From an uncultured delta proteobacterium (lineage in GTDB: Bacteria > Desulfobacterota > Syntrophobacteria > BM002), in contig CAVQGX010000005.1 in assembly GCA_963712115.1 (NCBI GenBank), positions 1 through 22,736 on the forward strand: a DNA stretch of 22,736 nt, written 5' to 3'. Under the pieces are notes generated by a model. The model saw nothing but the letters and a program-made list of their open reading frames with translations, made no database searches and was not told the DNA's origin. The translations under genes were made by a program, and so were the position numbers. Below, piece after piece: positions 1 to 22,736 of this stretch; positions within the stretch are counted from its first letter, which is position 1, and each line of letters begins with the position of its first letter.

Positions 1-25
1 TGTGAATTAAGGGATGATATACAAA
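1..25 (+). repeat. A-type 25-bp site of the repeated tripartite element (TGTGAATTA AGGGATG ATATACAAA)
   Basis: The same motif with invariant AGGGATG spacer recurs at 2285, 12285, 15577, 18176 and 19143/20501. It is an imperfect inverted copy of the B site ending the window. Confidence 0.9.
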
Positions 26-70
26 GTTTCGTAGTGATCGAAAGGAGGAGTGCTATCGTTTTCTAACAAT

Positions 71-1066
71 CTACACAGCCTTTCGATATTGAGTAGGAGT
101 AACCCCTCTCCACCGTTTGAACGCCCTTGAAAAGGCACTGGATTCTGAAAAACCTAGTAAAAATGCAATCTCTGTCATGCTGGTGTCTTGATCTTTTAAA
201 TACTTTTGGGCCAAATCCTGACGGATCTCATTTAAAAGAGTATTGAAGGTCGTACCAGCACTCTGAAGTTGCCGTTGTAAATTGCGAGAACTCATATACA
301 GTGCCCGAGCCACATTTTCATCGGTAACGTTACCTGAAGGAAGCTGATCGATGATAACTGCTTTGACCTTCTCGGTGATACGATCGTGATCTAGCTGGGC
401 AAGATACTCAATCATTACCTGATCATTGAGTTCAGCAAGTTGAGGATTTGAACCGGGCAGACTCTTATCAGCAGCTTCAATTGGTAATGTTAGACTGTTT
501 GCGGGAGCTTCAAAAACAACTGGAGAGCGGAAATACTCATAGAACCTCGCAGAACAAGAAGGCTTTGGATGTGTAAATGTCACTGATAACGGTGCCAGAT
601 CTTCTATGTAGTTCGTACGGCACATACTCATTGTAACAGCCAGGATGGCATCGTTTCGTGCAGGGATATCTCGCTTTTCATGGCTGGAAATGAGAGTGTA
701 AGTCAGTCCCGCTTCCGTTTCATTTAATTTAATGAATCGTTCATCAGAAAGAAAACGATGATATCGGTCCACTCTCTCGAGGGCTGTCCGCAAATTGTTG
801 CTTGCGAGCATAGCGTAGCCTAAGGCGCCGAAATTCGAAGGATGCCAAAACTCAGCAGCTTTAAGGCCGAAACAGGGATCATCAATAATCTTAGAGGCTT
901 TGCGCCATAGATTATCGATACTATCCAGTCTATATCTCCCTCCAGGTCGTTTCATCAGCTCAGGGTTCAGGCCCATTTCCCTAAACAGGAGCTCAGGATC
1001 AATTCCGTAAGATTCCAGTATGTTCCACACACCCATCAATAGACTGGCGTTATTCGTAGCGTACAT
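71..1066 (-). CDS. AraC-family transcriptional regulator (OruR/VqsM-like N-terminal domain)
   Basis: 331 aa with a C-terminal double HTH: VARALYMSSRNLQRQL...EIAFLLGFSESSAFSRAFKRWRGVTPTQYR. The N-terminal GALGYAMLAS segment is typical of this subfamily. Confidence 0.93.
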   Translation of the reverse strand: MYATNNASLLMGVWNILESYGIDPELLFREMGLNPELMKRPGGRYRLDSIDNLWRKASKIIDDPCFGLKAAEFWHPSNFGALGYAMLASNNLRTALERVDRYHRFLSDERFIKLNETEAGLTYTLISSHEKRDIPARNDAILAVTMSMCRTNYIEDLAPLSVTFTHPKPSCSARFYEYFRSPVVFEAPANSLTLPIEAADKSLPGSNPQLAELNDQVMIEYLAQLDHDRITEKVKAVIIDQLPSGNVTDENVARALYMSSRNLQRQLQSAGTTFNTLLNEIRQDLAQKYLKDQDTSMTEIAFLLGFSESSAFSRAFKRWRGVTPTQYRKAV

Positions 1067-1219
1067 TCTATAGACCCCTTTCTTTCGTTAATCCCCCAAA
1101 TTCGAAATTAGTCTTGTTCTCCCTTTATCAAATTTGGCGTGATGAGTCAAAAGATCGGCGCTCAGAGTCAAGCATTTAATGGTTTTGCTACTTATGATCT
1201 CCATAAAAGAACTGGAGAA

Positions 1220-1594
1220 ATGAAGGTGATGACAAAAAAGAACTTGAGCGAAATAATGGGGATTTGTGACCAACGTAGACACACGAGACTGAAGAAAAAC
1301 TTTCAGGTGACGTTACACAAGAGAGTTCCTGTTAATCTAGATTTATTGCTGAAAGGAAATACCTTGGATCTGAGTCGAGGTGGTTCCTTCATTGAGACTG
1401 AAGGCTGGCATCTTTTCGAACCTAATGAGGTAACGGAACTTACTTTCTTTTTCCCAACGGGCTTTAGCGGCAAGGATACTCCTATTGGTTTACAGGGATC
1501 AGCTATTGTCAGAAGAGTCGATAAATTAAGAGAAGGGATCGCTGTAGAGTTTATCAATGAGCTCAGGCATTTTAAACAAATCGCAGTGTGTTGA
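1220..1594 (+). CDS. PilZ domain protein (c-di-GMP receptor) 1
   Basis: RxxxR (RRHTR) and DxSxxG (DLSRGG) motifs plus GIAVEF strand. Start uncertain (1139/1220/1229); GGAG at 1214. Confidence 0.85.
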   Translation: MKVMTKKNLSEIMGICDQRRHTRLKKNFQVTLHKRVPVNLDLLLKGNTLDLSRGGSFIETEGWHLFEPNEVTELTFFFPTGFSGKDTPIGLQGSAIVRRVDKLREGIAVEFINELRHFKQIAVC

Positions 1595-1694
1595 TGATCC
1601 TGCAAACACCTGTGGCCCGGACGTACCTCATGACGAGAATATCCCCTTAGTTCCATTGGATCGTACACTCAAAGTCTGATTGGCGTGTTTGGAG

Positions 1695-1750
1695 TTTGCA
1701 TATCATACTTTAATTCAAACTTTTGCTGTTGTGAAACCACCACAACAGAG
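1695..1750 (+). repeat. B-M half-site (B 1695-1719 TTTGCATAT CATACTT TAATTCAAA; left half of M at 1741)
   Basis: Matches B consensus. CACAACA begins 22 bp after the B end, as in the other copies. Confidence 0.85.
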
Positions 1751-1797
1751 GTATTAGAGCATTTAAGTTGTATTTGAGAGAGAGGTACAATGATCTC

Positions 1798-2494: not shown

Positions 2495-3331
2495 ATGATT
2501 AGGCTATCGTTTTATTACTTGGTGGCGGCATTGCTCGCTGCCTGTGCAACAATGAATCCAGCTAGCAATCCTGCCGAATTGGCTCGCACATTGGATAAAG
2601 CCATTGTAGCTATACCCGTTAGTAAGTATTCGAAAAACATTGATTCCGAAAGTGATTATGCTGATGTGTATGATAAATTTTGGCAAGTTAAGAATGAAAT
2701 GGCGAAAATACCGGACGAGGCCAAGATACCATTAGTGATCTATATGCATGGCTGCGGTGGAATTATGTTTAGAGAGCGTGTTCATATTCGTTTTCTCTTT
2801 GATAATAACTACGCAGTCCTTGCCCCCGATAGTTTTGCTCGCGACTACAAGCCTAAAAGCTGTAATCCCTATAACCTTACAGGAGGTTTCCATAGGGGGG
2901 TGCTGAGGTATCGATTGGCTGAAGCGCGTTTTGCTTACGAGTTTGCAAAAACACTACCTTGGGTAGATAAGCAAAACATTTTCCTAATGGGCTTTAGCGA
3001 GGGAGGGATAACAACTGCGAGATATGGTCAAGGCGGCCTAGCTGGAAGAGTAATTTTGGGATGGACTTGTAGTGCGGGGTGGACAGAATATAGGGGCATT
3101 GTAGGACCCAGAGATGAACCCATACTTGCAGTAGTTTCTCTAAAAGACCCCTGGTTTAGTGAACCTTGGATGCATGGTAACTGCGGTATGTTTATGGCGT
3201 TCAGAAAAAATAGCGAATCCGTTGTCTTAGATGGGCCTTATCATGATGTTCTGGCGTTGCCTGGAGTACAAGAAAAAGTGATTCAATTCCTTAGGGCTCG
3301 CACTCACTCCTCGAAGCCTGAAGACGGGTAA
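2495..3331 (+). CDS. Lipoprotein, dienelactone-hydrolase-like alpha/beta hydrolase
   Basis: Lipobox LAAC, HGCGG oxyanion region, nucleophile elbow GFSEG, and candidate Asp (KDPW) and His (YHD). Confidence 0.85.
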   Translation: MIRLSFYYLVAALLAACATMNPASNPAELARTLDKAIVAIPVSKYSKNIDSESDYADVYDKFWQVKNEMAKIPDEAKIPLVIYMHGCGGIMFRERVHIRFLFDNNYAVLAPDSFARDYKPKSCNPYNLTGGFHRGVLRYRLAEARFAYEFAKTLPWVDKQNIFLMGFSEGGITTARYGQGGLAGRVILGWTCSAGWTEYRGIVGPRDEPILAVVSLKDPWFSEPWMHGNCGMFMAFRKNSESVVLDGPYHDVLALPGVQEKVIQFLRARTHSSKPEDG

Positions 3332-3386
3332 GTACAGAGCTCTATTTAATCGTTAATGTGGGAAGTCCGCACAGCTTTTTCCAAAC

Positions 3387-3441
3387 TTTACATATCATAC
3401 TCCACACTTGCCCTTTTGAGAACTGACCACAACATCTGTGG
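3387..3441 (+). repeat. B-M half-site with 5-bp deletion in B (TTTACATAT CATAC-----TCCACA; M 3428-3441)
   Basis: Aligns to B consensus with TTTAA missing. M (CACAACATCTGTGG) begins 22 bp after the B end. Confidence 0.78.
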
Positions 3442-3448
3442 GTTTAAG

Positions 3449-3588
3449 GCTATTCATTTGTCAAAGAACGAATGGGGCATTTGCCACGCTTTTTTCTCAG
3501 GACAACAACCCCCGCTCCTGAGAGAGCCTGTTTAGCTTTCCTCCTAACAGTATTGGTGCATGGCTAATCCCCTGGCATGCTTTCTGCA
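3449..3588 (+). repeat. About 140-bp noncoding module duplicated at 14834-14975 (hairpin plus sigma54 promoter)
   Basis: Shared blocks in the same order: GCTATTCATT-GTCAAAGAA, CAACAA-CCCCGCTCC, GAGCCT, GTATTGGTGCATGGCTAATCC, TGGCAT..CTGCA. Confidence 0.9.
3573..3588 (+). promoter_or_regulatory. Putative sigma54 (-24/-12) promoter
   Basis: TGGCATGCTTTCTGCA: GG-N10-GC, about 50 bp upstream of the lipoprotein start. Confidence 0.65.
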
Positions 3589-3638
3589 CATAAATTTAGC
3601 TGGAAATTGGTACCAACTAACTGAATATGGAGTTACTA

Positions 3639-3893
3639 ATGAAAAGATGTCTATTAGTCCTCTTCATCCTTCTTGTAACTGCCTGCTCCCACGCTCCAGA
3701 ATATCCCCTTCCCGATCCACCCTATTTCGCATCTGTCTCAGGGCAACGCTGCGCAATTGAATGTCGGCAAGAGGATTATGAATGCAAAATGGATTGCCTA
3801 GGAACCAAAAGCGAACAGATTGCATGTGTTTCTGAATGCAACCAGGGGCTCGACCAGTGCTACCAGCTTTGTACAGTGGTATTAGAGTTGTAA
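3639..3893 (+). CDS. Small cysteine-rich lipoprotein
   Basis: GGAG RBS at 3629, signal peptide with lipobox VTAC, and two C-x3-C-x6-C-x3-C blocks. Confidence 0.75.
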   Translation: MKRCLLVLFILLVTACSHAPEYPLPDPPYFASVSGQRCAIECRQEDYECKMDCLGTKSEQIACVSECNQGLDQCYQLCTVVLEL

Positions 3894-3926
3894 CGGTAAT
3901 ATCGGGGAGAGAGGTACAATGGTCTC

Positions 3927-4259
3927 ATGAAAGATAGACGGCAATTCGCACGAGCAGAAGTTAAGTGGCCTGTGACTATTCTATCCCCTGAGCAACAACC
4001 TCCTGGTGAAATAAAAAGCATCAGTCAAGTGGGTGCATCCATTTACTGCCAAAAACTACCTCCAGCAGGACAGGAACTCTCATTGGAGATTCAACCTCCC
4101 AATCGCCAGTCATTCTTAGTCTTTGCCAAACCAATTTGGGCAGTTGACGCTGACTCCTCAGAAAGGCCATACCGATTTGTCTTTGGTGTCCAGTTTGAAT
4201 ACATCTCAGAAGATGACCTTCAGTTCCTTGGTAACATTGTTTCCCAACAGTCGCATTAA
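3927..4259 (+). CDS. PilZ domain protein 3 (paralog of 1798-2121)
   Basis: RQFAR, SISQVG, GVQF motifs. About 75% aa identity to PilZ 2 by manual alignment. Confidence 0.88.
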   Translation: MKDRRQFARAEVKWPVTILSPEQQPPGEIKSISQVGASIYCQKLPPAGQELSLEIQPPNRQSFLVFAKPIWAVDADSSERPYRFVFGVQFEYISEDDLQFLGNIVSQQSH

Positions 4260-4531
4260 TAGAGTTCGATCTAGCCCCGGATAATCATAGGGCAATTTTG
4301 CTCGTTCAATAACAATCTCTTCTCCACCACGCTCTCCTAGGTTCACACAGCCAATTATCGGAATACCTCTGCCGCTGTTACGCACTCGTCCCGAATCTCT
4401 CTGATTACAGATTTGATTTCTTCTGGTAGTAAGCTATCAATCGGCCTTATGCGGAGTTCAGCCAGGGCAACTATGGCATCCTTGAAGTCCACACAGAATT
4501 AGTGTGCTTCCCACCTCTCGGAACTATCATT

Positions 4532-4606
4532 GCGCTTGCCCTTGTGGTTGATGAACACCCACCATTCACCGGAGTGTTTGACTTGTTATCTAACAATTAC
4601 AGCCAT
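4532..4606 (-). pseudogene. Remnant resembling the N-terminal arm-binding segment of a tyrosine integrase
   Basis: The minus strand reads MAVIVR*QVKHSGEWWVFINHKGKR with AGGTG upstream. It has an in-frame stop and is truncated. Family assignment is from recalled similarity. Confidence 0.45.
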
Positions 4607-4924
4607 TTAAATCACCTACTCCAATTTTACTATTTTAGTAGTTAAAACTATTAATGATACAAATTTAGGCTATCACCCCCTTCTTTTTAGGTTTCACAAG
4701 TAACTCTCTTGTGGTGGATTACTTTCTGGTAGCGTTTCCCCAGCCCCCAAGCAAGAGACACGCTACCATCCTAGCCCCCATTAGCCTTGGTTCGCTGGAC
4801 TGGTCAGTGGGCTTTCTTTTTTCTTGCCACCTACCTACTCATTTCTGTATTTTGAAAACAGTCTGAGATCGTCTGAAGATGTACGAGAAAGAATCCTCCT
4901 ACTGATAGCCCCCCGCAATCGACT

Positions 4925-5263
4925 ATGAGCACTGACAACCGCCGCCACTTTAGAGCTAGAGTCAAATGGCCTGTTTTAATCCAGACTCCCACCGACCTCG
5001 TTGATGGAAAAACTGAAAACCTCAGTCTAAGCGGTGCATTCATCCGCCTATCGAAGCAATTGAACTCCAGTGCCGAAATACCTTTAGTCCTAAATGCCAA
5101 GGGACGGTTCATACCATGTAACGCTCAAATCGTCTGGTCTGACGAGCGCAACCTTTCAGACCAGAGAAAATTCCTTGGAATCGGAGTGCGCTTCACTCGT
5201 ATGATGCTCCACGACCGAGAGTTTCTTTATCGTGAAATTTCAAATGACGCTAGGGTTAAATAA
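4925..5263 (+). CDS. PilZ domain protein 4
   Basis: RRHFR and NLSLSG motifs, GIGVRF strand. Confidence 0.88.
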   Translation: MSTDNRRHFRARVKWPVLIQTPTDLVDGKTENLSLSGAFIRLSKQLNSSAEIPLVLNAKGRFIPCNAQIVWSDERNLSDQRKFLGIGVRFTRMMLHDREFLYREISNDARVK

Positions 5264-5315
5264 GCTATCTTCAATCAGACGTCATAGGATGGCGAGAGGA
5301 AGAGTCTGAGTAAAT

Positions 5316-5651
5316 ATGGAACAAGCAGTCGATCTAAACCTAATATTAGGAATCATCTTTGGACTTCTCGGCATCTTTCTGGTCGGTCTGTGGATTGCAG
5401 TTCCTTTTGTGGTGTTCAGCATGAGAAAAAGCTTGAATGAAACTAACAGGCGCCTTGAAAAGATACTTTCCAGACGCCCTGAAGACATACTTAATAAGCG
5501 CCTTGAAGAAATACTGTTGGAGCTTAAGACTCTGAGCAAAGCTATGCGGACTCAGGCTGCGCCGATTGAGGAAAAATCAGAAAACAGACGTCAACGTCAT
5601 ACAATAACTCAGCTTTACCGAACACCGAAAGAGGAAGACCCGAACAAATAG
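5316..5651 (+). CDS. Hypothetical single-pass membrane protein
   Basis: Hydrophobic residues 7-34 followed by a coiled-coil-like repeat NRRLEKIL/NKRLEEIL. Confidence 0.7.
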   Translation: MEQAVDLNLILGIIFGLLGIFLVGLWIAVPFVVFSMRKSLNETNRRLEKILSRRPEDILNKRLEEILLELKTLSKAMRTQAAPIEEKSENRRQRHTITQLYRTPKEEDPNK

Positions 5652-5664
5652 TTCAGGATCGCTG

Positions 5665-5859
5665 ATGGAAAGAACCAGGAATCCCTTTCCCCCAGAATGT
5701 CCCAAGCAGTGTCCATGCGGTCATAAGCATCTTTCATGGTCTACAGACGATGACCGCATCTTCTGCTGGGATTGCAACCGGAGATACCTACTACTTGCCT
5801 GTTTCAAACCACCAGAGCGTGACCTGTCTGAATTTGAAAAGCCCAATGATCAGCCTTGA
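5665..5859 (+). CDS. Small putative zinc-binding protein
   Basis: 64 aa with CPKQCPCG and CWDC Cys clusters, starting 13 bp downstream of the previous gene. Confidence 0.55.
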   Translation: MERTRNPFPPECPKQCPCGHKHLSWSTDDDRIFCWDCNRRYLLLACFKPPERDLSEFEKPNDQP

Positions 5860-6055
5860 CCCTAACGACATCAAACGAGTCAAACTTTATTCTGTCAAAT
5901 ATTCAAAATAAAATAACCGTAGTGGTTCAGCCAGACGAAAAAATGTGTCCTGTGCGTGGTACCGCGCTGCCAGCACAAGAGAAGTTATAGCAACTCCCGC
6001 TGCCCGAACAACCTCTTTAACTTCGCAGCCAGCATCATTGCTACGAGAGTAAAAA

Positions 6056-6427
6056 TTGTGGGAAAAAGATATATTAGAGTTGTCTAATCTTTTGCAATAT
6101 ATAATAGACCAATATATATATGAAATCAGTCTATATAATCAATGGAAACAAAGAGCAGACTCAATTTATGAAGAGAAATTGCACAAGATATTAGAGAACT
6201 TATTAATAGCACTGAATTTAATTTCTCAAATAATTACGTTCGAAATAGCATTACAAAATCTAAGTCTCGAAGATAGACAGATTTACGCATCATTTTTTCA
6301 TACAGCTAAAGAAATTATTGCCAGAACAGACTTGGATAAAATACGCAAAGGTCAGATAATTCACAACCTAGCTGCTCAATTATATTTCAATTCTGAACAA
6401 TTGCAGAATTTAAACAAACATCGCTAG
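6056..6427 (+). CDS. Hypothetical protein with C-terminal RKGQIIH motif
   Basis: C-terminus RTDLDKIRKGQIIHNLA matches 6525-6923 and the GGDEF protein tail. TTG start uncertain. Confidence 0.6.
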   Translation: MWEKDILELSNLLQYIIDQYIYEISLYNQWKQRADSIYEEKLHKILENLLIALNLISQIITFEIALQNLSLEDRQIYASFFHTAKEIIARTDLDKIRKGQIIHNLAAQLYFNSEQLQNLNKHR

Positions 6428-6524
6428 GGAGGCCAGGAGAATAAGACGTGCGGTAGCCACATCTTTCACTTTTCAAAGAGCACTGAGGAGTCTCGGCTCC
6501 CACTCAAGAAAGGAGAACAAAATT

Positions 6525-6923
6525 ATGGAGTTAGATAGCAGTTCTATGAAGTTGAAGGTAAAGCCGACATCCTATCCTGTAATGGAAATTTCTCTAAAAA
6601 ACAGGAGTGAACATGAGGATGACCTTTTGGAAACAGAAGTTACATTCTCGAGGGAGTTTTGGCTGAGTCTAGCGGACACGCTCAGGGAAGGAGCCAAGAG
6701 CATAGATGCTTTTGGTTCGCAAAGGGTAATATCGGGATTAAATCATATGGCCCAGAGAATATCGGAAGAAATTGAAGCAGAAAATCGCAGACTTCAATTT
6801 AAGGAAGCCTATGGGTCTTTTACGAATTTTGTCGTTCAAATCAGTAGCAGAAAGGATTTAGATGATGTGCGTAAAGGTCAAATTATTCACGATATGGCTC
6901 GCAAGTTGAAACTGGAGGATTGA
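6525..6923 (+). CDS. Hypothetical protein, stand-alone homolog of the GGDEF protein C-terminal domain
   Basis: AAGGAG RBS. Aligns over about 125 aa with the last domain of 8382-10022 (SYP, TEVxFxRxFW, QRIxxEIEAE, RKGQ..HD). Confidence 0.85.
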   Translation: MELDSSSMKLKVKPTSYPVMEISLKNRSEHEDDLLETEVTFSREFWLSLADTLREGAKSIDAFGSQRVISGLNHMAQRISEEIEAENRRLQFKEAYGSFTNFVVQISSRKDLDDVRKGQIIHDMARKLKLED

Positions 6924-7007
6924 AGACAGACATATTCAGGTGAGACATAATATAGAGCAATACTGAGTAAAAAGAGAGACAGTCTTCTATTCATTTTCCA
7001 AGACCCT

Positions 7008-7027
7008 GCGGAGCTTATCGGCTCCGC
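7008..7027 (+). terminator. GCGGAG-family hairpin, terminator-like
   Basis: GCGGAGC-TTATCG-GCTCCGC followed by a T-rich tract. Confidence 0.65.
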
Positions 7028-7064
7028 TGTTATTTTCAGCACACTTAACCGAAAGCGAACATTA

Positions 7065-8100
7065 CCCTAATGTTGCATAAAAATCTGGTTTACGTCGATT
7101 TTGCTTCTAAGCTGCCTTTTGCACTGCCTCCAAGAAGTGCAGAAGATCTTTGCGAACTGCTGGGTTTGCGCTCATGGTGAGTGTCAGTTGGCCCTGGGGT
7201 CGTATGAGCCGTCCGGCGCGTTGAATGAAGCGGTGTCTGAGGGTATCTAGAGTTTGGAACTTCCAAGCTGCGGGGCGTTTCGGGCGAGCTCGCAGCAAGG
7301 GTGGATTTGCCAGCATTTGTATTTCTCGGGCTAAGTTGTGAGCCATCATCGCGCAAAGGGTATAGACCTGGTTGCCTGCCAAGCGCCGAGTGGGAATGAC
7401 ATTGAGGCCACAGTTGTTTTTGGCCTCGCCGAAGATGGCTTCTTGGGAGCTGCGGCCATTATGAAACAGCACGACGCTTTTGGCTGAGTTGGTTTTGTTG
7501 GTAACGATAACCTTATATTGGTAGTTGAAGTCACGTGGTTCAAACAGATCAAGTTGCAAAGGGCCTTTATATTGGCTTTTAACTCTTCTGCGAGTGAAAA
7601 TGAACCGATATTTCGTCTGCCACGATTTTGGCTTCCACCTGGCCTCAAAGTATGACCACTGCCTATCAACGATCCGCCAGCGTTGTCGCACCTCAATCAT
7701 TTGTTTGAGCTCTGCAAATCTTTCGAAGGGGACAGAGCCTGTAAACTGCACCTTGTTGGTATCAAAGACATCAAATATCTCCTTGTTGAAGAAAGCTGCA
7801 TCGATTCGCGATTCAAATCTGGTATTCGCTAGCTCGCTTCGTGCTTTTTCAAAACAGCGCATCATGAAATCAACGGCACCATTGGAGTCATGGACATTGC
7901 CAGGGCGGTGATGCACGTCAAAGAATTGGCCTGTTTGCGCGACGCTGCAAAACAGTGGATAGTAACTGCGTGCACCCTTTTTCCTTTTGTTGAAACCGAC
8001 AGCCGTGCCCTCTGCATGCGCTTTGGTGCTGAGCACGGAGCCATCAAAATCCAAGGTCAGGTTTATTTGTGAAAAACCCGATTTTTATGCAACATTAGGG
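7065..8100 (-). mobile_element. IS1380-family element, internally deleted, inserted in a B site
   Basis: 21-bp perfect terminal IR CCCTAATGTTGCATAAAAATC, with ATTA on both flanks (7061-7064, 8101-8104). Only 1036 bp long. Confidence 0.9.
7107..8054 (-). pseudogene. IS1380-family DDE transposase, 5'-truncated
   Basis: Begins at LTLDFDGS (first catalytic Asp region) about 40 bp from the IR. Also has RIDAAF and [15 protein letters not shown] motifs. The N-terminal part is absent. Confidence 0.85.
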
Positions 8101-13239: not shown

Positions 13240-13261
13240 GTTCAGTGCATTCTGCCTAGAG

Positions 13262-14975: not shown

Positions 14976-15098
14976 GTTTTTTCCTCTTCGAAGGAGAGAG
15001 ACTGATCCCCTCTCTTCTTCTAAAAATACCTCCATCTAGCACCGCTCCCACACCGAGATTTCCGGTGTGGGGGCAAACACCCTAGGGAAAGAAACGAA

Positions 15099-15485
15099 AT
15101 GCCGCAAAAAGATAGACGCAAACATCAAAGAGCAAAAGTAGTGTGGCCTGTAATCATGGAAAACAACCGAAATATCATAAGCGGTGAAACGCAAGATATA
15201 AGTGCTGGTGGAGCATATATACGTTGTCGTACACCACTGAAGCCCGTTGAGGTTTCCATGTATGTCAGTGTCTCTTTTTTAAGCCCTCGTATAAGAGCCA
15301 TGGCAGAAGTTGTCAGGTCAGATGTTCTTGGATCAGCTAATGGGGTTGACTACTATGGTATAGCAGTTAGGTTCGTAGCAATTTCTAATGAAGCCCGGGA
15401 ACTCATCTCACTTGAATTTCAGGACACAAAATTGTCACCTCCTACAACAACGTCGGTATCCCCAACTCATCAGCCACACCCTTAA
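15099..15485 (+). CDS. PilZ domain protein 6
   Basis: RKHQR, DISAGG and GIAVRF motifs. Confidence 0.9.
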   Translation: MPQKDRRKHQRAKVVWPVIMENNRNIISGETQDISAGGAYIRCRTPLKPVEVSMYVSVSFLSPRIRAMAEVVRSDVLGSANGVDYYGIAVRFVAISNEARELISLEFQDTKLSPPTTTSVSPTHQPHP

Positions 15486-15541
15486 CGTCAATGGTCATCA
15501 GGGCAATACTATCTCCTTCTATTCCCCCTGCCTTGACAACT

Positions 15542-15601
15542 CTCAATATCTTGTGCCAGATTAGAATCCAGGCGAGTGTGAATTAAGGGATGTAATCTTT
15601 G
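15542..15601 (+). repeat. M-A half-site (M 15542-15555, A 15577-15601)
   Basis: CTCAATATCTTGTG then TGTGAATTA AGGGATG TAATCTTTG. Confidence 0.88.
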
Positions 15602-15751
15602 CTTTCACGCTAGACGGTCTCGTCCAGTTTGATCTGAATTGGTATTTTTTTTCCACTTCTATGGTCTTCTCTTCCCAATCACTAAATCAAACTTTTCATA
15701 CACCATGCCATAAGTTATTGAATTTCAGTCTAATTAATTAGACTCCTAATG

Positions 15752-15767
15752 TGGCACAATCTTTGTT
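15752..15767 (+). promoter_or_regulatory. Possible sigma54 promoter (imperfect -12)
   Basis: TGGCACAATCTTTGTT, with GT instead of GC at -12. Confidence 0.4.
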
Positions 15768-15906
15768 TATCTAGACTACATGTTGAATACCCATTAATTC
15801 TGCTGCCAGACTCCAACACTGCATGTTTGGGTCATCTTTTGGAGGATCTTTCATGCATACAGTTTTCCTTAACTCAGCGGCTCTAATGAAAAGCGGGGCA
15901 GTTTAG

Positions 15907-16140
15907 ATGACAACCTCGGAGAAAAGGATACTTGAAGCGAATCTATTTCAATTCGTCATCCGCCTTCGCTCCTGGCTCAGAAACCAGATTAACAGGATTA
16001 AAGCAATTTCAGTGGCTTTATTGGCGCTAATCCTGATTGTACTCGTAAGGTTACTTTGTCTATTTGTGGGCAGAACTGAAGCGCCAGAAATAGATTTACG
16101 AGAAGTTGAGGCAGAGTCAGACGAGAAAGTAATTTTTTAG
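15907..16140 (+). CDS. Small hypothetical membrane protein
   Basis: 77 aa with one hydrophobic segment (AISVALLALILIVLVRLLCLFV). Confidence 0.5.
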   Translation: MTTSEKRILEANLFQFVIRLRSWLRNQINRIKAISVALLALILIVLVRLLCLFVGRTEAPEIDLREVEAESDEKVIF

Positions 16141-16168
16141 TCGTGGATGAAATCCTTTCGAGGTCTCA

Positions 16169-16600
16169 ATGTTTCCGGAGTTATACTTATCCGTAGGGTA
16201 TGTTTTTCTGGTAAGTCTGCTTCTACTAAGGGATGAATATCTAACCAGGAAGATTAAGAAGAAACGCCTTGACGTCCGAGCCAAACTCTCTTGGCCAGTC
16301 ACGGTCCAAACTATCGCAGGACCCATTTGCGGTCACACGGAAAACATTAGCGTATCTGGTGCTTTATTGGTCTGTCTACAGCCATTATGCAAGGGTGAAA
16401 TACTAAAAGTAGTCTTAAATGTTCCAAGTCGGCCCTTGGAGGTAGACGCAGAGGTAGTTTGGACCGACATGTATCGACCCTCTGAAAAAAACTATCCTCA
16501 CAATGCAATCGCCGTCCAGTTCAAACGGATTTCAGATGAGTCCAGAAGTTTTTTGGCCCTAGCAGTGCATAATCGCTTGAACACTGATAAGCGTTCGTAG
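16169..16600 (+). CDS. PilZ domain protein 7 with N-terminal hydrophobic anchor
   Basis: RLDVR, NISVSG, AEVVW and AIAVQF motifs. GAGG RBS and hydrophobic residues 5-20. Confidence 0.88.
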   Translation: MFPELYLSVGYVFLVSLLLLRDEYLTRKIKKKRLDVRAKLSWPVTVQTIAGPICGHTENISVSGALLVCLQPLCKGEILKVVLNVPSRPLEVDAEVVWTDMYRPSEKNYPHNAIAVQFKRISDESRSFLALAVHNRLNTDKRS

Positions 16601-16619
16601 GCTCAAATACTGGAGAGAT

Positions 16620-16644
16620 AGCGGAGCTTCGGCTCCGCTTGTTT
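16620..16644 (+). terminator. GCGGAG-family hairpin with UUCG loop
   Basis: AGCGGAGC-TTCG-GCTCCGCT followed by TGTTT. Confidence 0.75.
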
Positions 16645-16726
16645 ATACGCTAAATAGCTTGTCCCAACCTGACTTCTAGCAGAAGCACAGATAAAAGCCT
16701 AACAAGGAACACTTACCATCCATAGC

Positions 16727-18016
16727 ATGAGGCACACGATGAGTTCATACAACAAGAAAAAGATGATCCTATCCATCCTTATAATCCTGATGTTGTGGTC
16801 CATAGCTTTGCTCCTAGGATTAGGATATCGAGACGTCTCTGCTTTTTTCCAAGGACAGGCGGAGGCCTCTGTGAGTCGTGTGGGGCATTTGAACGAAAAG
16901 AAACTTTGGCCTCCCTTGCAACGCCTCTTGGGAGCCCAAGTGCTTACTCTCAAATGTAAAAACTATGATGAGGTGGAACAGAGCATTGTAGATCTCAGGG
17001 AGGCAGGCGTTAATACTTTAATTGTTCGTGCATTTCAAAACCGCGGCGACACATTTCATCATTTTGCTAGTCCGCGATGTCAGGCAGGGGTCTATTTTGA
17101 AACCGAACACGGGGAGGTCGTGGACCCGATGTTAACACGACTTGTCTCTATTGCGCACCGACATGATCTTAAAGTGTTTGCTTGGATGGAGACACGGAAG
17201 ATGCCCCTTAGGTTGACTAATCCTGAAAGGGCCCAAGCAGTGCGTTATGATTTCGCCCAAAAAACCTTTGAACTAATACCTATGTGGAGCATCTTTGCCG
17301 AGGAGGTCCAGAGGAGCCTTATGGCACTCTACCAGGATGTGGCGAGAACAGGAATCGATGGAATCTTGGTTCAGGATGATTTAGTCATGTACCAGTATGA
17401 AGACTTCTATCCAGAAGCAGTATCACTGTTTGAGAGGGAAACAGGCAAGGTGCTCAGCCCGAAGACGCTCTACCTTTCGATTTTCAAAAGTCCTAAAGGA
17501 CGCTGGTTCGTACGCAATTACTCATACAACTTCTGGAGATGGTCACGCTGGAAAAATCAAAAACTTCTAGACTTAGCACGCAACCTCATCAGAGCTACCA
17601 GGGAAGTCAATCCAAACATAAAGTTCGCCCTCAACTTCATGTACGAGTCGGTAACCGACCAGGACAACGCCCTGGCATGGTTGTCTCAGGATCTTGAGGC
17701 GGCCATGAGACTCCCAATCGACTTCTATGCCATAATGGCCTACCACAGACAAATCAAAAAGGAGCTACATCTGAGCGATGAGGAAACCTATGAAAAAATC
17801 GCCAGCATGACAGCAAGACTCCTGCGGGTGATTGATGATCCCAGTAAGATCTTAATGAAAATACAGGTAAAGGATTGGGATACTCGCAAACAGATACCCT
17901 CCATTGAAATAGATGAGGTCCTTAGGAGGATAGATAGTCAAAATCAAATCAGCCTCGCTTTCGTACCCTACTCCGGCAGACATTCTCTTGAAGTGATCAG
18001 CCGCTATTTTCGATGA
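16727..18016 (+). CDS. PgaB C-terminal-like (GH153/GHL13-type) glycoside hydrolase, membrane anchored
   Basis: GVYF, KVFAWM, LYQDVA, IDGILVQDD, AWLSQD and AIMAY parallel the PgaB/HmsF C-terminal barrel. N-terminal TM helix; start uncertain. Confidence 0.75.
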   Translation: MRHTMSSYNKKKMILSILIILMLWSIALLLGLGYRDVSAFFQGQAEASVSRVGHLNEKKLWPPLQRLLGAQVLTLKCKNYDEVEQSIVDLREAGVNTLIVRAFQNRGDTFHHFASPRCQAGVYFETEHGEVVDPMLTRLVSIAHRHDLKVFAWMETRKMPLRLTNPERAQAVRYDFAQKTFELIPMWSIFAEEVQRSLMALYQDVARTGIDGILVQDDLVMYQYEDFYPEAVSLFERETGKVLSPKTLYLSIFKSPKGRWFVRNYSYNFWRWSRWKNQKLLDLARNLIRATREVNPNIKFALNFMYESVTDQDNALAWLSQDLEAAMRLPIDFYAIMAYHRQIKKELHLSDEETYEKIASMTARLLRVIDDPSKILMKIQVKDWDTRKQIPSIEIDEVLRRIDSQNQISLAFVPYSGRHSLEVISRYFR

Positions 18017-18043
18017 ATACCAAAGTTGTCCATCGTACTGCAG

Positions 18044-18200
18044 ATTGCATATATCCCCACTTTTGCCATTTAAGACCAAGCTACAATATCTTGGTTTAAT
18101 CTAAGAAAATGCGGAGTTTTTGGCTCCGCTTTTTTCTTCTCAACATCTTGTGCCTGAGCTTTCTGATGGGGAAACTGTGAATTAAGGGATGGTATCTACA
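18044..18200 (+). repeat. Split site: deleted B (18044-18059), M (18082-18095), GCGGAG hairpin (18111-18135), M (18139-18152), A (18176-18200)
   Basis: ATTGCATAT---------ATCCCCA CTTTTG, TACAATATCTTGGT, CTCAACATCTTGTG and TGTGAATTA AGGGATG GTATCTACA, with conserved spacings. Confidence 0.85.
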
Positions 18201-18454
18201 GGTTTGCTCCCTCCTTTTTGACCCAGCCAATTAATCGAAAATGGTGGTTTTTCGTGTTGACACATCTCTGCTTCTTATTTCACCCTTATGTGATTGTTCC
18301 CCATCACCTTAGCTTTTCTTCTCCTCGGACCTGCAATCACCTAAGATGCTATAAGTAATTAATAAATTACTTTAGCTTTGTTTTGTTAATATATATATTT
18401 TAGGCACTTAAATTACCATAGATGGCCATATAGTTACCTACACAACTGCTAAGA

Positions 18455-18470
18455 TGGTCTAATCTTTGCA
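18455..18470 (+). promoter_or_regulatory. Putative sigma54 promoter
   Basis: TGGTCTAATCTTTGCA, GG-N10-GC, 45 bp before the ATG at 18516. Confidence 0.5.
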
Positions 18471-18515
18471 TGTACTTTTGTGGCAATATGGCTAACTATA
18501 CGGTACCAATGCACC

Positions 18516-19049
18516 ATGAATCAGAAAAGAAAAAGCTACAACACCACTCTCAGGGCTGACCTAACCAGACGGCTCCGCATCCTCGCAGCCCAGAGGAGCA
18601 AGCGGCACAATGATCTTCTGGAAGAGGCTATACAAGACCTTTTAACCAAATATGAAAAATATGAAAAAGACTCCCAAGTACCGACTCTTAGTCCAGTCCC
18701 TAAAGCAGAAAGGCGCGAGCATCCTAGAGCTGAAGTATCATGGCCTGTAAGTATGATTACCGCTCAAGGCTTATTTCAAGGAGAAATCAAAGATATCAGC
18801 AAAGGTGGTGCACTCATCCAATGTACAGAACTGCCCAAAACAGATGAGCCCCTTGAATTAAGCATTGAGATAACCGACCACCTTTTAAGCATATCAGCCA
18901 CCGTGGAAAAGGTTAGGCTAAATCTTGATGATAGTGACAAAGCCCTTCCTTCATATGATATGGCTGTCCGCTTTCTGGGAATTGAGGCTGACCAAAGTAA
19001 ACATCTGTTCAATGCTATTGAACACAAAACCCGAACAATTGCCATTTAA
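18516..19049 (+). CDS. Ribbon-helix-helix - PilZ fusion protein (PilZ 8)
   Basis: N-terminal RKSYNTTLRADLTRRLRILAA...NDLLEEAIQDLL has RHH pattern. C-terminal REHPR, DISKGG and MAVRF motifs. Confidence 0.85.
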   Translation: MNQKRKSYNTTLRADLTRRLRILAAQRSKRHNDLLEEAIQDLLTKYEKYEKDSQVPTLSPVPKAERREHPRAEVSWPVSMITAQGLFQGEIKDISKGGALIQCTELPKTDEPLELSIEITDHLLSISATVEKVRLNLDDSDKALPSYDMAVRFLGIEADQSKHLFNAIEHKTRTIAI

Positions 19050-19077
19050 GATCTATAGAGTATCATTCAAAGAACAC

Positions 19078-19153
19078 AGCGGAGTCCTTGGCTCCGCTTT
19101 TTTCTTCTCAACATTTTGTGCCAGTGTCAAGACCAGCCAAAGTTTAAATTAAG
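19078..19153 (+). repeat. GCGGAG hairpin, M box (19107-19120) and left part of A site (19143-19153) split by ISL3
   Basis: GCGGAG..GGCTCCGCTTTTTTCTTCTCAACATTTTGTGCC is nearly identical to 18111-18154. Confidence 0.88.
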
Positions 19154-20500
19154 GGTTCTTCTCCCAATTAGTTGTATATATAGGTAAAAGTGGGCTGGTT
19201 CATCAAAACAGAATGGACATCCGGTAACTCCTAGAAGTATATGGTTTAACGACCAAGACAAACCCTATACAAAGGAGGCCTGCGATGTCCTTGCCCACTA
19301 TAGCAGCTTATTTTCCTTTTCGTCGAATCAAAATTGTCAATCAGGCGGTTACACCCGAGGCTAGCGAAGCTCACATCCAGGTACAGCCGGACAAGCGCTT
19401 TCAGCCCATCTGCCATGGATGCGGCCAGAGGGCTTGCGGTGTTCACAGCTGGAGTCGGCGCAAAGTTCGGGATCTGCACCTTGCCAGTGCTCGGCTGTGG
19501 CTCACCTGTCAATATCGCAAGGTGTTTTGTGCTCACTGTCAAGGCATCCATATCGAGGATTTAGAGCTGTTTCACCCTTATCTTCGGATGACAAATCGAT
19601 TGGCCCTTTATGTTTATCAGCTGTGCCAGTTTATGACCGTATCCGAGGTGGCTCGACACCTGGGTCTGAATTGGAAAACGGTTAAAGCCATCGACAAGTT
19701 TTGTTTGGAACGCGATTATGGTCAACTCGACTACCAGGGCCTGCACATTTTAGCTGTGGACGAAATCTCCATCCGAAAAGGTCAGCGCTACTTGACCATT
19801 GTATTGGACTATCTCAGTGGCCGCGTGGTCTTTGTCGGCAAAGAGCGCAAGGCCAAAACTCTGGAGAGGTTTTTCAATAAGTTGAATGGCAAGCAGCGTA
19901 AAGCCATTGAGGCAATTGTCATGGATATGTGGGACCCGTATATCAAAGCCGTTAAAAAAAACTGCCTCAGGCTAAGATCGTCTTCGATCTGTTCCACGTC
20001 GTGGCCAATCTTAACCTGATTATAGATAAGGTCAGAAACAGCGAATATCGCAAGGCCTCCGAACAGGACAAGGCTGTCTACAAAGGTGCAAGGTACCTGC
20101 TGCTCAAAAACCGCAAAAACGTGCGACGCAGAACTCATCGACAACAACTCAAAGAGCTGCTGGAGTTAAACCAAGTAATCAATACGGTGATGATTCTTAA
20201 GGAAAAGCTCAAACACATATGGACCTATCGATCAAAGACATGGGCTAGCAAGGCTATCGATCACTGGTGCGAACTGGCCCGGTCCTTAAATCACCCATCG
20301 GTGACAGGCTTTGCCCGGATGTTAGAACGATATCGATACGGCATCCTCAATCACTGTGATTATCCTATCCACACCGGAAAGCTGGAAGGGGTGAATAACA
20401 AAATCAAAGTCATCAAACGTAAAGCCTACGGATATCATGACTTGCGATACTTTACGCTGAAAATCTATCAAGCTTTCTTCAACTAATTGGGAGAAGAACC
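19154..20500 (+). mobile_element. ISL3-family insertion sequence inserted in an A site
   Basis: 21-bp terminal IR GGTTCTTCTCCCAATTAGTTG and 8-bp TSD AAATTAAG (19146-19153, 20501-20508). Confidence 0.93.
19285..20486 (+). CDS. ISL3-family transposase, split by a -1 frameshift at A8 (19954-19961)
   Basis: CHGC/CAHC zinc finger, AVDE, MDMW and EGVNNKIK motifs. The -1 frame restores LPQAKIVFDLFH. Confidence 0.9.
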
Positions 20501-20522
20501 AAATTAAGGGATGTAATACAAA
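20501..20522 (+). repeat. Right part of IS-split A site (AAATTA AGGGATG TAATACAAA)
   Basis: Rejoining across ISL3 gives TTTAAATTA AGGGATG TAATACAAA. Confidence 0.88.
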
Positions 20523-20838
20523 GTCCGCTCCCACCATCCATGCTGCCCACCTCACCTTCGCCCTAGTTGGTCAGGAGGTATTTTTTCTCTTGCATCCTGA
20601 TGCACAAGGCCGAATAATTCAACTAGTTAAGATCCTTATAGAAGTTTCATAAATCGTATATAGTTTCTATTTTTTTCTTCTGACCATGCTGACTTAGTTG
20701 AATTGCACATTACACCTATTCGTCTGTGTCCAGTCCACTCCTTTTGGGAGTTGTCGAGAAGAACCGTTGAAGTGGAAGTATCGTCAACGAAAAAGAACCT
20801 CAACCTAACCTACAGGGCAGTATTGAAAGGAGGAAGTT

Positions 20839-21468
20839 ATGCAGAACAGGAAACAATTGATGATTGTGTTGACGACCTTGTTGGTAATTATGGCCTCAGC
20901 TGTCTCATTACCAGGAGTGATTAGTGCAGGTGATCTGGAGCCACCGCCGGAAGCAGTAGATGGGTCTGGCAACCCTGTGTCAACGATGAAAACTCTGGAC
21001 CAAATCCGGCCCACTTGGAGCCAGAAGCTAAGAGCTGATGATGGCGATCCTGTCACAGGCTGTGGTTCTAGCCGGTTTGAGTGTGTGATGGACGGCCAGG
21101 CAGTGTTGGACAAGGAAACCGGGCTTGTGTGGGAGCGCAGTCCGGATGACACACTCAGAAAGTGGTCTGCTGCTATAAGTCATTGCTACGAGAGGGAGGT
21201 GGCCAATCGTAAAGGGTGGCGGCTTCCCACGGTAGAGGAGTTGGCCAGCTTAGTAGACAATGATAACTCGAATCCGCCCCTACCCACCGACCACCCTTTC
21301 AGCAACGTGCAGTCGGACTTCTACTTGTCGTCTACTACCTACAGAAACGACACCACCAGCATGCTTGCCATCCAGTTCACCGGTGGCCTCGTGCAGGTCG
21401 GCACTAAGAGTACCGCCTACGGCTATGAGTGGTGTGTGCGAGGCGGATACGGGTATGACGCTTATTGA
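20839..21468 (+). CDS. Secreted DUF1566 (Lcl C-terminal-like) domain protein
   Basis: GGAGG RBS and signal peptide. VLDKETGLVWE, GWRLPTVEELASL and WCVRG motifs. Confidence 0.88.
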   Translation: MQNRKQLMIVLTTLLVIMASAVSLPGVISAGDLEPPPEAVDGSGNPVSTMKTLDQIRPTWSQKLRADDGDPVTGCGSSRFECVMDGQAVLDKETGLVWERSPDDTLRKWSAAISHCYEREVANRKGWRLPTVEELASLVDNDNSNPPLPTDHPFSNVQSDFYLSSTTYRNDTTSMLAIQFTGGLVQVGTKSTAYGYEWCVRGGYGYDAY

Positions 21469-21554
21469 TTTGATGAACTGAGTGATTTGGCACCTTTTAT
21501 TGGATGTAAGACGCGAATCGCTCCCGAAATTTTTAGAAAGGGGTAAAAAGACCC

Positions 21555-22645
21555 ATGATATACAAAAAAATATGCAAGTTGCTTTTTGTAATCATTCTGC
21601 TCCTCTTTCCAACGGCTGCCTTTGCTGAAAACATCGACCCGAACAATGACAACTCACAGTTCGCTTATGGGGAGAATGTGGGATGGTGTAGCTTAGAACC
21701 TGGAGGTAATGGTGGTCTTGGACTAGAGGTGGCTAGTTCTGGAGTGACTGGCTACATGTATTGCGAGAACATAGGGTGGGTCAACTTCCGCCCCACCAGT
21801 GGCAGTGGAGTTAATATTGACCCAAACAATGGTGAGTTAAGCGGTTTTGCGTGGAGTGAGAACGGTGGGTGGGTCAACTTCCGCCCCACTACTGGCGGTG
21901 GAGTTAATATTGACCCAAACAATGGTGAGTTCAGTGGCTTTGCATGGGCTGAGAACTTCGGATGGATTAATTTTGCTCCGACTAGTGGCGGAGTAACGAC
22001 TTCATGGACTCCATCTGTAGACACTGGCGGCGATGGCATAGAGGACGATTCTGACAACTGCCCAGCCGTGGCGAACCCAGTGCAAGAGGATTATGAAGAC
22101 GACGGTGTGGGCGATTTCTGTGACAATTGCCCTGGCATGTCAAATCCGACCCAAATCAATGCGGACAAAGATAGCTTTGGCGATGCCTGTGACAACTGTC
22201 CGACTGTGGCCAACGATGACTAGGCCAATAACGATACTGACAAGGCTGGCGATGTTTGCGATGAAGACGACGACAACGACACCGTCCTTGATGCAGACGA
22301 TAACTGCCCGTTCGTGGCAATTCAGATCAGGTTGACTCTGACGGTGATGGCATAGGAAACGCCTGTGATGATGATACTTATGGTGACGGTATTTCAGACT
22401 TGGACGATCGGTGTCCAGAAACTGCAATAGGAACGGTTGTAAACGCTAATGGGTGCAGTGGCGAACAGCTCGTAGATTTAGATTGCCCGTGTGAGATTGA
22501 ACCAGCCTGGAAAAATCACGGCCAGTATGTATCCTGTGTTGCTCATGCCGCAGAAGACCAGTTAACGGCTGGGCTGATCACTCAGGCAGAAAAAGATGCC
22601 ATCGTGTCAGCACGTGCCAAAAGCGGTTGTGGCAAAAAGAAGTAA
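21555..22645 (+). pseudogene. Secreted protein with GxAWxENxGWxNF repeats and thrombospondin type 3 Ca-binding repeats, disrupted
   Basis: Signal peptide and DNCP..N..Q.D.D.DG.GD.CD repeats. In-frame TAG at 22221 and a 1-bp frameshift near 22319, after which the repeats continue to the stop at 22645. Confidence 0.85.
21774..21956 (+). repeat. Intragenic 93-bp tandem duplication
   Basis: GGGTGGGTCAACTTCCGCCCCAC..GGAGTTAATATTGACCCAAACAATGGTGAGTT at 21774 and 21867. Confidence 0.9.
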
Positions 22646-22667
22646 GATAGACACTCATTGATTCAAT

Positions 22668-22700
22668 AAAGGCGGGGCCAACAATGGGCCCTGCCTTTTT
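22668..22700 (+). terminator. Rho-independent terminator
   Basis: AAAGGCGGGGCC-AACAATG-GGCCCTGCCTTTTT. Confidence 0.8.
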
Positions 22701-22711
22701 CTTTTGGAGAT

Positions 22712-22736
22712 TGGATATATCATACTTTAATTCACA
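22712..22736 (+). repeat. B-type 25-bp site (TGGATATAT CATACTT TAATTCACA)
   Basis: Its reverse complement TGTGAATTAAAGTATGATATA matches the window start TGTGAATTAAGGGATGATATA at 19/21. Confidence 0.92.

Follow-up and report, generated by a model that had tools for sequence, protein, structure and literature searches.

Inverse 29-bp sites frame candidate mobile gene cassettes across an uncultured Desulfobacterota-type genus

The 22,736 bases analyzed here, called the window below, are the whole of contig C5 in the genome assembly of an uncultured delta proteobacterium (G000; 4.9 Mb in 70 contigs, 94% complete and 6% contaminated). The window is probably a fragment of a mobile gene cassette system that occupies many loci, extends over the whole genus and is bounded by core-type site-specific recombination sites, here named A and B, which are accompanied by a further element, the M box. 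The original prediction, made from the letters of the window alone, was of a gene-cassette array delimited by a repeated site. Since C5 starts within an A site and ends within a B site, the assembly broke at the repeat and the window does not delimit the array; C5 is one of many contigs of the same sort.

A and B represent a single 29-bp site in two versions, with a 7-nt asymmetric spacer between two 11-nt arms. Profiles were built from 75 unique A and 58 unique B copies of the G000 genome. In A, the strong arm (AGTGTGAATTA) is followed by the spacer AGGGATG and the weak arm (TaAT.taaA.T); B starts with the weak arm (AcTgt..ATta), followed by the spacer CATACTT and the strong arm (TAATccACACT). 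B is an inverted A with two changes in the spacer and a single change in the strong arm. Conservation of the weak arm is limited to the inner TAAT and two outer positions (TAAT....A.T), and this arm goes along with the neighboring cassette.

Within the window, the 10-mer around the A spacer gave seven matches with up to one mismatch, compared with 1.96 expected and none of 100 shuffles reaching seven. Six of them are the A sites (7, 2291, 12291, 15583, 18182 and 20504), so all six predicted copies with AGGGATG were confirmed above chance, and the seventh (16226) is an unrelated one-mismatch match. The B 11-mer with up to two mismatches gave 17 matches against 7.85 expected, a number reached by 0 of 100 shuffles; six correspond to B sites (1704, 2212, 8101, 8178, 12211 and 22721), five to A sites on the other strand and six are unrelated. 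Nine B sites with CATACTT or a deleted form had been announced. Those found by pattern carry CATACTT, with ATTACTT in the one split by an insertion sequence (IS), while the three deleted forms (around 3385, 13263 and 18043) were recognized only by eye. The M boxes are present as well, although 11 M-like boxes were read by eye instead of the ten claimed. Every site read in the window lies between genes and on the + strand, and the modules between them hold mutually unrelated genes (AraC regulator, weak hydrolase-like match, GGDEF, DUF2914, GHL13/PgaB-like hydrolase, Lcl_C and TSP3), both as predicted.

The M2 box (c.Caa.at.Ttgtgccaga) is conserved and placed at a fixed distance upstream of A. 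In G000, a forward M motif was found 18–80 nt upstream of 61 of 95 A sites, 47 of these 61 having no B within 160 nt. Junctions of type I have the order B-M-A with a spacing of 73–78 nt (e.g., 2201–2311), those of type II have the order B-M1-terminator-M2-A over about 130 nt (18043–18202), and in a third type genes, often PilZ genes, are placed between M1 and the terminator (B-M1-genes-terminator-M2-A, 13263–15603). Gene-bearing modules with the weak arms inside (A...B) alternate with connectors with the strong arms inside (B-M-A, 73–130 nt), which occasionally contain a PilZ gene, and cassettes are often plain A...M2-A. M1 and M2 tentatively resemble the left and right halves of the undivided type I M box, a reading drawn from few junctions; M may then be a third insertion point, used by PilZ-terminator modules.

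Folding of these elements was also studied. Hairpin-like character is confined to the minority of B-M-A doublets. No consensus fold was obtained for M2-A, with an alifold energy of 0.0 for 51 unique units and a mean z-score of −0.08 for 30 of them, indicating that the site most likely acts as duplex DNA. An Rfam scan of the whole window, with E-values up to 1, gave zero matches; therefore, A, M and B are not explained by a known RNA family. The minus strand of the M box was considered as a sigma-54 −24/−12 element and dropped, the spacing being off by one.

Exchange at the sites was read from pairs of junctions. For A, 77 sites with up to one mismatch were taken, 76 of them with full context, and 60 nt per side were compared in 2850 pairs: nine pairs were alike upstream only, five downstream only and four on both sides. 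In the 12 A pairs displayed, identity through M2 and the strong arm ends 17–20 nt into the core, or else begins within the first 5 nt, which places the exchange within about 13 nt that include the spacer. Among 58 B sites, three pairs shared sequence only upstream and 25 only downstream, and two pairs (C2:94996/C4:8700 and C3:106035/C4:8700) narrowed the B exchange to 8 nt (ACATACTT), spacer included. In addition, the ends of duplicates within the assembly (at least 400 bp and at least 93% identity) were located relative to the sites. Of 252 internal ends, which are not independent of each other, 24 fell within 40 nt of a site, compared with 0.94 expected; many of the remaining ends belong to IS copies or to strain duplicates of whole contigs.

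Near-identical multi-kb blocks (97–99.8%) were seen on the contig pairs C30/C65, C27/C56, C9/C10, C16/C59 and C28/C66, the last block spanning 9 kb. Together with the 6% contamination estimate, these pairs indicate that the assembly probably contains two closely related strains, and some of the apparently paralogous junction pairs may be allelic between them.

Comparison with relatives, one of the checks proposed for the prediction, revealed module differences bounded by the sites at two syntenic loci. At locus 1, between proA and the cyclodeaminase gene, G000 carries an array of four cassettes framed by A and B; in G002, G012 and G007, sites of these kinds frame different genes, and G016 has one J-domain open reading frame (ORF) and no recognizable site. 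At locus 2, with a flank of MFS, response regulator and hyp126 genes, G002 has an array of seven cassettes and G000 has the C42 array on the same side of the flank, the two arrays having no cassette protein in common. For three of the six G002 locus 2 proteins queried (RR130, GATase and OmpA), the best homologue in G000 is encoded elsewhere: that of GATase belongs to the C3 array, that of RR130 lies about 2.4 kb away from the lone A site of C27, and that of OmpA is some 12 kb away from the C31 array. Breakpoints in the spacer together with cassette turnover at two syntenic loci are, as far as sequence comparison goes, a signature of site-specific recombination. The predicted shuffling of modules by a site-specific system is supported by these breakpoints, the duplicate ends at sites and the differing cassettes between conserved flanks.

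The motif scan of the genome and its relatives, another of the checks proposed, showed that the A core is abundant in G000. With up to two mismatches, the A core 16-mer gave 97 matches, compared with one for the reversed control, and the B-type pattern gave 54 (A and B controls, 0–1). The 97 A and 54 B matches form 48 clusters, 17 of them with at least three sites. In the latter, 103 of 110 sites share the orientation of their own cluster, and some of the seven exceptions (C5 ‘a’ and two in C36) are B sites that also match the A pattern on the other strand. The sites are spread over these 48 clusters and do not make up a single array. In clusters of at least three sites, ORFs of 80 aa or more run along the site direction in 95 cases and opposite to it in 28, and inter-site gaps of more than 200 nt have a median of 1570 nt. 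Clusters lie at many contig ends and also in mid-contig among ordinary genes, for example at C31:153.6–158.4 kb; the arrays of C31, C9, C42 and G002 are flanked by ordinary genes.

The A core was present in 17/17 other species of the genus and in 1/1 genome of a sister genus, was not found in the other genera of the family that were searched (0/3), and gave a single match in one of 39 genomes outside the family. In species-representative genomes, an A 20-mer was found in at least 95 DNA stretches. Among the matches listed, most are metagenome-assembled genomes (MAGs) labelled Desulfobacteraceae, Deltaproteobacteria, Syntrophobacterales or Desulfobacterota, and a few are short contigs in bins of other phyla. 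Such short contigs with the A core (L041, L049, L053, L055, L061 and L081) occur in MAGs labelled Flavobacteriales, Dehalococcoidales, Dadabacteria, archaeon and Promethearchaeota, and are probably mis-binned repeat-rich contigs, not transfer events. The B-M-A junction had no match in plasmid and phage collections. In metagenomes, 20 runs from nine sediment-type studies contain 40–50% of the sampled words of window positions 12100–19150.

PilZ-domain genes are expanded in G000, with 136 PF07238 matches and 122 ORFs recognized by a purpose-built hidden Markov model. Of these ORFs, 23 lie within 500 nt of an A or B site, a zone that makes up 2.5% of the genome. The window has eight PilZ-domain ORFs. 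Some PilZ proteins of G000 have C-terminal zinc ribbons or an N-terminal ribbon-helix-helix (RHH) domain.

Since a recombinase was predicted to be supplied from outside the window, candidate enzymes were searched for. The domain matches of the window ORFs include no recombinase besides the IS transposases, in agreement with that prediction. A co-occurring recombinase was looked for beyond the window: no dedicated one was found, and the tyrosine recombinases of the closed relatives G002 and G013 are only XerC/XerD-like, with two PF00589 matches each, one XerD-like (296–298 aa) and one XerC-like (356–357 aa open frame). G002 contains 15 A matches (up to one mismatch) and the clean array of seven cassettes. 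Phage_integrase matches number 12 in G000, whereas a search for resolvase-type (PF00239) domains gave none in G000, G002, G013, G011 or G018.

The arms were also compared with the dif site of the genus. A weak arms agree with the XerD arm of dif at a mean of 7.12/11 positions and the strong-arm consensus at 7/11, whereas shuffled arms score 3.6; a value of 7 is attained by 0.76% of random genomic 11-mers. Because the sole PF00589 matches of G002 and G013 are Xer-like and the arms partially resemble the XerD arm, the host XerC/XerD pair is the leading candidate to act on the sites; an enzyme of an unrecognized family is possible instead. Integrases of 417 aa and 415 aa beside arrays (C39 and C11) and one of 342 aa (C46) were considered as array enzymes and read as island integrases, since those of C39 and C46 are encoded directly beside tRNA genes, the reading frame of the C11 one, located where the contig ends, is interrupted by a stop, and the C39 type is rare, with homologues in 3/17 other genomes of the genus and in 6/31 genomes overall, G000 included.

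Alongside the canonical dif there is a second dif-like site with identical arms and the spacer TTAATC; the positions recorded for these sites are C43:75937–75964 and C49:23172–23199 in G000 and C1:280948 and 289575 in G002. In G002, 8.6 kb separate the second site from dif, to which it is inversely oriented, and the pair may be either a true dif module or an invertible terminus segment. No arrays mixing dif-like and A/B sites were found near the dif-like sites of C43 and C49; an A site with a truncated spacer lies 2.5 kb from the one on C49.

We infer the class and identity of the enzyme, the steps of excision and integration and the role of M as follows. A tyrosine-recombinase-type enzyme, supplied in trans, would bind both arms and exchange strands at the spacer edges. 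Since the two spacers differ, A would recombine only with A, and B only with B. Between direct A repeats, a cassette would be excised and reinserted along with its 3′ M2-A unit. A module flanked by A and B would be replaced by two successive exchanges through a cointegrate, with swapping between arrays, a scheme that has been put forward for the dif modules of Acinetobacter, and the M box may serve as an accessory or third site.

Several observations weigh against a cassette system of this kind. Single sites make up 21 of the 48 clusters and, in the closed genome G011, the A-core matches are scattered; both would also fit a protein-binding or regulatory repeat. No dedicated recombinase could be tied to the sites. 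In Logan contigs from four runs, depth peaks at the sites and there are many joints between sites, but their sides are just 18–30 nt long, and in these contigs with short-sided joints no circle or excision junction was seen. As for the Xer candidate, the canonical dif is a separate site, present as a single exact copy in 13/15 genomes of the genus searched and in G000; the arms agree with the XerC arm of dif at 3–4/11 positions, which is background; and the spacer has 7 nt, compared with 6 nt in dif. The spacer length and the missing XerC-like arm call for caution. In addition, the two arms are near-palindromic, and their resemblance to the XerD arm should be counted once, not twice. Spacers invariant across the genus are unusual for a mere crossover region. 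Finally, the middle segment of type I connectors is found in both orientations with the flanking spacers pure, which is not predicted by a simple B-by-A inversion.

It is unlikely that the sites are repeats resembling repetitive extragenic palindromes (REPs) or bacterial interspersed mosaic elements (BIMEs), with another function such as terminator, insulator or nucleoid-protein binding, and that the mosaics arose by homologous recombination or gene conversion between repeats of 60–130 nt. About 150 intergenic palindromic copies in one genus only, their frequent position right after terminator hairpins, the many single sites and the lack of a dedicated recombinase would all be expected of such repeats, and B-M-A doublets make long imperfect hairpins like those of REP doublets forming hairpins (REPINs). 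ISs insert into the sites, and REPs are also known as IS insertion targets. However, the exchange points fall in 8–13 nt around the spacer, even though the flanking M2 and arms offer equal or more homology. The only gene resembling a REP-associated tyrosine transposase (RAYT; C20:238180–238446) has its own, unrelated inverted GC-rich REP flanks, and the other Y1_Tnp matches are plain IS200 copies with their own hairpins, one of them inserted in a B site. The left and right arm variants show no covariation and there is no consensus fold. A recombinase core site accounts better than a hairpin for the strict asymmetry of strong and weak arms and for the presence of two classes of spacer.

Transcriptional control was considered as well: the palindrome would be the operator of a transcription factor, perhaps linked to cyclic di-GMP in view of the PilZ and GGDEF genes, and the repeats would mark its regulon. 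A dyad of 25–29 bp upstream of mostly co-oriented genes (95 vs. 28 ORFs), conserved leader families with a promoter-like box after many A sites, and the enrichment of PilZ genes near sites (23/122) are consistent with it. This explanation is nonetheless improbable, since it leaves unaccounted for the junctions at which identical upstream sequence passes, right at the core, into downstream sequences that are unrelated, the differing gene content between conserved flanks in sister species and the inverse B version at the 3′ ends of modules, and since the downstream genes are unrelated in function.

Even less credit can be given to A...B segments being non-autonomous transposons that stack in tandem, with terminal inverted repeats (TIRs) of about 20 nt (TGTG...CACA) and a DDE transposase encoded elsewhere. 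In its favor, A is about 90% identical over 21 nt to B read as reverse complement, and the ends are TG/CA. The 5 nt outside the ends are, however, reverse-complementary (AAAAG and CTTTT) and not direct target duplications; about half of the A sites lack a B within 160 nt upstream, such cassettes being A...A; and the inner weak arms differ from cassette to cassette, in contrast to the constant outer parts. A transposase gene bearing these ends did not turn up, and the ISs of the arrays have inverted repeats of their own.

That the sites are atypical attC sites used by the integron integrase of G000 is the least credible reading: G000 does encode IntI (486.9 bits, cut-off 265) and B-M-A doublets are imperfect palindromes of attC-like length, but next to IntI (C27:2356–3300), upstream of the gene, lie separate repeats, about 115 nt long and ending in canonical AAC...GTT, and no A/B site is there, from which it follows that A and B are not attC, the closed array-bearing relatives G002 and G013 have no IntI among their two PF00589 matches each, M2-A units do not fold, and no RYYYAAC or GTTRRRY boxes were seen by eye in A, B or M. 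The statement of the original prediction that the motif does not match attC is upheld. The integron of G000 is a canonical one (C27:1–3300, locus L001), in which a 317-aa intI ORF (TIGR02249) faces away from at least three short cassettes with the 115-nt repeats between them, and its array runs off the contig start.

With recombination-site cassettes as the preferred reading, the window can be followed from its first base; sites and modules lie on the + strand unless stated. The first A site (1–27) has its strong arm cut by the contig end, the spacer at 10–16 and the weak arm at 17–27. Module 28–1692 carries the AraC-family regulator gene on the minus strand (71–1066, AraC domains) and a PilZ ORF on the plus strand (1139–1594, PilZ match at C5:1271–1561). 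It ends at the first B site (1693–1721; weak arm, spacer CATACTT at 1704–1710, strong arm), which is followed by an M-like box (1737–1751) and, between two B sites, a PilZ gene (1768–2121, domain match). The complete B-M-A connector of type I-a spans 2201–2311 (B 2201–2229, M 2245–2266, A 2283–2311) and has 35-nt arms that are 83% complementary. In the next cassette, a domain search gave the gene at 2495–3331 a weak dienelactone-hydrolase-like match below the Pfam cut-off; a B with deleted spacer/arm (3385–3409) and an M-like box (3425–3442) follow, both read by eye.

A multi-gene stretch (3443–7053) then contains two PilZ genes (3927–4259 and 4925–5263, domain matches) and small ORFs. The B site 7056/8101 (7054–8118) is split into a left part (7054–7064) and a right part (8101–8118) by a DDE_Tnp_1 IS (7065–8100) with 27-nt inverted repeats, of which other copies occur in the assembly. 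The next part (8139–8195) has an M-like box (8139–8155) and an aberrant B-like site containing CATACTT (8178–8184), found by pattern and by eye. The minus-strand region 8382–12007 comprises the GGDEF gene (8382–10022) and an IS3-like element (about 10556–12007; rve-domain ORF 10597–11955), with near-identical IS copies on C4 and C34.

A second B-M-A connector (12200–12311; B 12200–12228, M 12248–12268, A 12283–12311) precedes a cassette ORF without Pfam match (12624–13181) and a terminator-like hairpin (13217–13230). A deleted-form B (13263–13289) and an M1-like box (13300–13318) were read by eye, and between the M1-like and M2 boxes lie PilZ (13745–14182), DUF2914 (14260–14721) and PilZ (15099–15485) genes. 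The M2 box (15540–15562) with A (15575–15603) is the commonest junction type and has no B nearby. By domain matches, the cassette at 15907–18016 consists of a small ORF, a PilZ gene (16169–16600) and the GHL13/PgaB-like glycosyl hydrolase gene (16727–18016). It is followed by the type II connector, with a deleted B (18043–18067), M1 (18079–18094), a terminator hairpin (18111–18129), M2 (18138–18158) and A (18174–18202).

The following cassette has an RHH-PilZ gene (18480–19049, domain match), a terminator (19078–19098, hairpin scan) and an M2 box (19106–19126, by eye). The A site 19143/20501 (19140–20524) is split into 19140–19153 and 20501–20524 by an ISL3-family IS (19154–20500), which has perfect 21-nt inverted repeats (19154–19174 and 20480–20500), transposase ORFs and an 8-nt target duplication. 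Domain matches in the last cassette (20839–22223) identify an Lcl_C (formerly DUF1566) protein and a TSP3-repeat protein. A terminator (22668–22698) comes before the ninth B site (22710–22736), which has its weak arm, its spacer at 22721–22727 and a strong arm truncated where the contig stops.

ISs of three families (DDE_Tnp_1, ISL3 and IS200) were observed inside A/B sites, two in the window (7065–8100 and 19154–20500) and one at C48:16446–16965 of G000, and the A/B sites appear to be preferred IS targets. At C49:25718, the spacer of an A site is cut short and followed by unrelated sequence and a 506-aa ORF, possibly another IS. Leaders of a few conserved types lie directly 3′ of A and start the cassettes at many A sites (in the window, 12312–12400, 18203–18260 and 20525–20600). 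One leader family contains ...AAAATGGTGGTTTTTCG..TTGAC and is promoter-like in look, and another is C-rich (...GCTCCC.CC..CTCCATGCTGCCCACCTCAC). A scan of the window for sigma-70-like promoters gave 15 sites, with 16.4 expected. Upstream of two different PilZ genes, there is a 98-nt direct repeat (3491–3588 and 14878–14975, 82% identical), and the TSP3-repeat gene contains two tandem 93-nt units (21765–21950, 87% identical).

Among known systems, the closest analogue is found in the pdif/dif modules of Acinetobacter, which depend on XerC/XerD. These modules are described as having inversely oriented sites, alternating C and D modules, ORF-less, inverted and fusion modules and a need for like spacers (PMC13141974). 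With them, the A/B arrays share short core-type sites with one conserved and one variable arm, inverse sites flanking a module, two alternating module classes (variable arms inside or conserved arms inside), ORF-less modules, modules in either orientation, the lack of a recombinase gene in the array and exchange between like spacers. The alternation is seen in C31 (‘abababbaa’), C36 and C42 and, in the window, at 2201–2311 and 12200–12311. The exceptions A...A and B...B resemble the described fusion modules, which are flanked by directly oriented sites (PMC13141974). That the sites do not match pdif, as the original prediction had stated, is therefore true for the sequence, while the architecture closely parallels that of pdif modules.

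Unlike pdif modules, the arrays are chromosomal, at many loci between housekeeping genes of an uncultured Desulfobacterota-type genus, and not on Rep_3/OrfX plasmids. There are about 150 sites per genome, with an 11-7-11 layout instead of 11-6-11 (28-bp site). The arms are unlike the XerC arm of the host dif and agree with the XerD arm at only 7/11 positions, and two nearly invariant spacer classes and an extra M box are found. Xer catalysis of the A/B exchange, as in pdif, would rest on evidence by exclusion.

Integrons are another point of comparison, together with clusters of attC sites lacking integron integrases (CALINs), which are attC cassette clusters without an adjacent integrase. As in these, the cassettes are small, mostly co-oriented and functionally unrelated, and each closes with a copy of the repeated site; site uniformity within the lineage is high, as in sedentary chromosomal integrons, and the clusters have no adjacent integrase, as in CALINs. 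In contrast to integrons, attC core boxes and a conserved hairpin are both missing, the site has two inverted versions, arrays occur in relatives without IntI, and many cassettes have their own promoter-like leader. Integrative mobile elements exploiting Xer (IMEXs, CTX/TLC-type) are phages or islands that stack head-to-tail at a single dif site. They share with the present arrays the stacking, at a Xer-type site regenerated at each junction, of elements without a recombinase of their own, but here small cassettes are found at dozens of non-dif sites and the canonical dif is separate. Like REPs, BIMEs and REPINs, the sites are genus-specific intergenic palindromes that occur singly or as inverted doublets with a linker and are IS targets; unlike REP-RAYT systems, the RAYT-like gene has a different REP, hairpin covariation is missing and the exchange falls in the “loop”, that is, the spacer. 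The system is best placed with the site-bounded cassette and module kind, nearest to pdif, yet at the sequence level its sites are neither pdif nor attC.

A literature search, which did not extend to supplements, found no description of the motif or of a comparable system outside Acinetobacter. It is a tentative proposal, for which the odds are somewhat less than even, that this is an undescribed form of chromosomal cassette exchange, an “integron without an integrase”, in which two heterospecific inverse 29-bp sites and M are used by a housekeeping or unknown recombinase at dozens of loci, and which drove genome growth in this uncultured sediment genus, including part of the PilZ expansion to about 130 members.

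Integrons and the dif modules of Acinetobacter are two known ways to file small modules behind short recombination sites. A third system, if true, would make cassette-type plasticity more widespread and varied than the integron paradigm suggests, and it would be distinctive in having its own site, many chromosomal loci, a lineage of environmental anaerobes as host and no integrase of its own. Should XerC/XerD, or XerD by itself, prove to act on the sites, the range of Xer gene mobility would become much wider than the plasmids of Acinetobacter; should it be another enzyme, a recombinase–site pair that is new would be there to be discovered. The arrays would then amount to a natural form of recombinase-mediated cassette exchange, and its two natural heterospecific sites may interest genome engineers. 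For the organism itself, the system offers a handle on how one genome gained more than 120 PilZ-domain genes.

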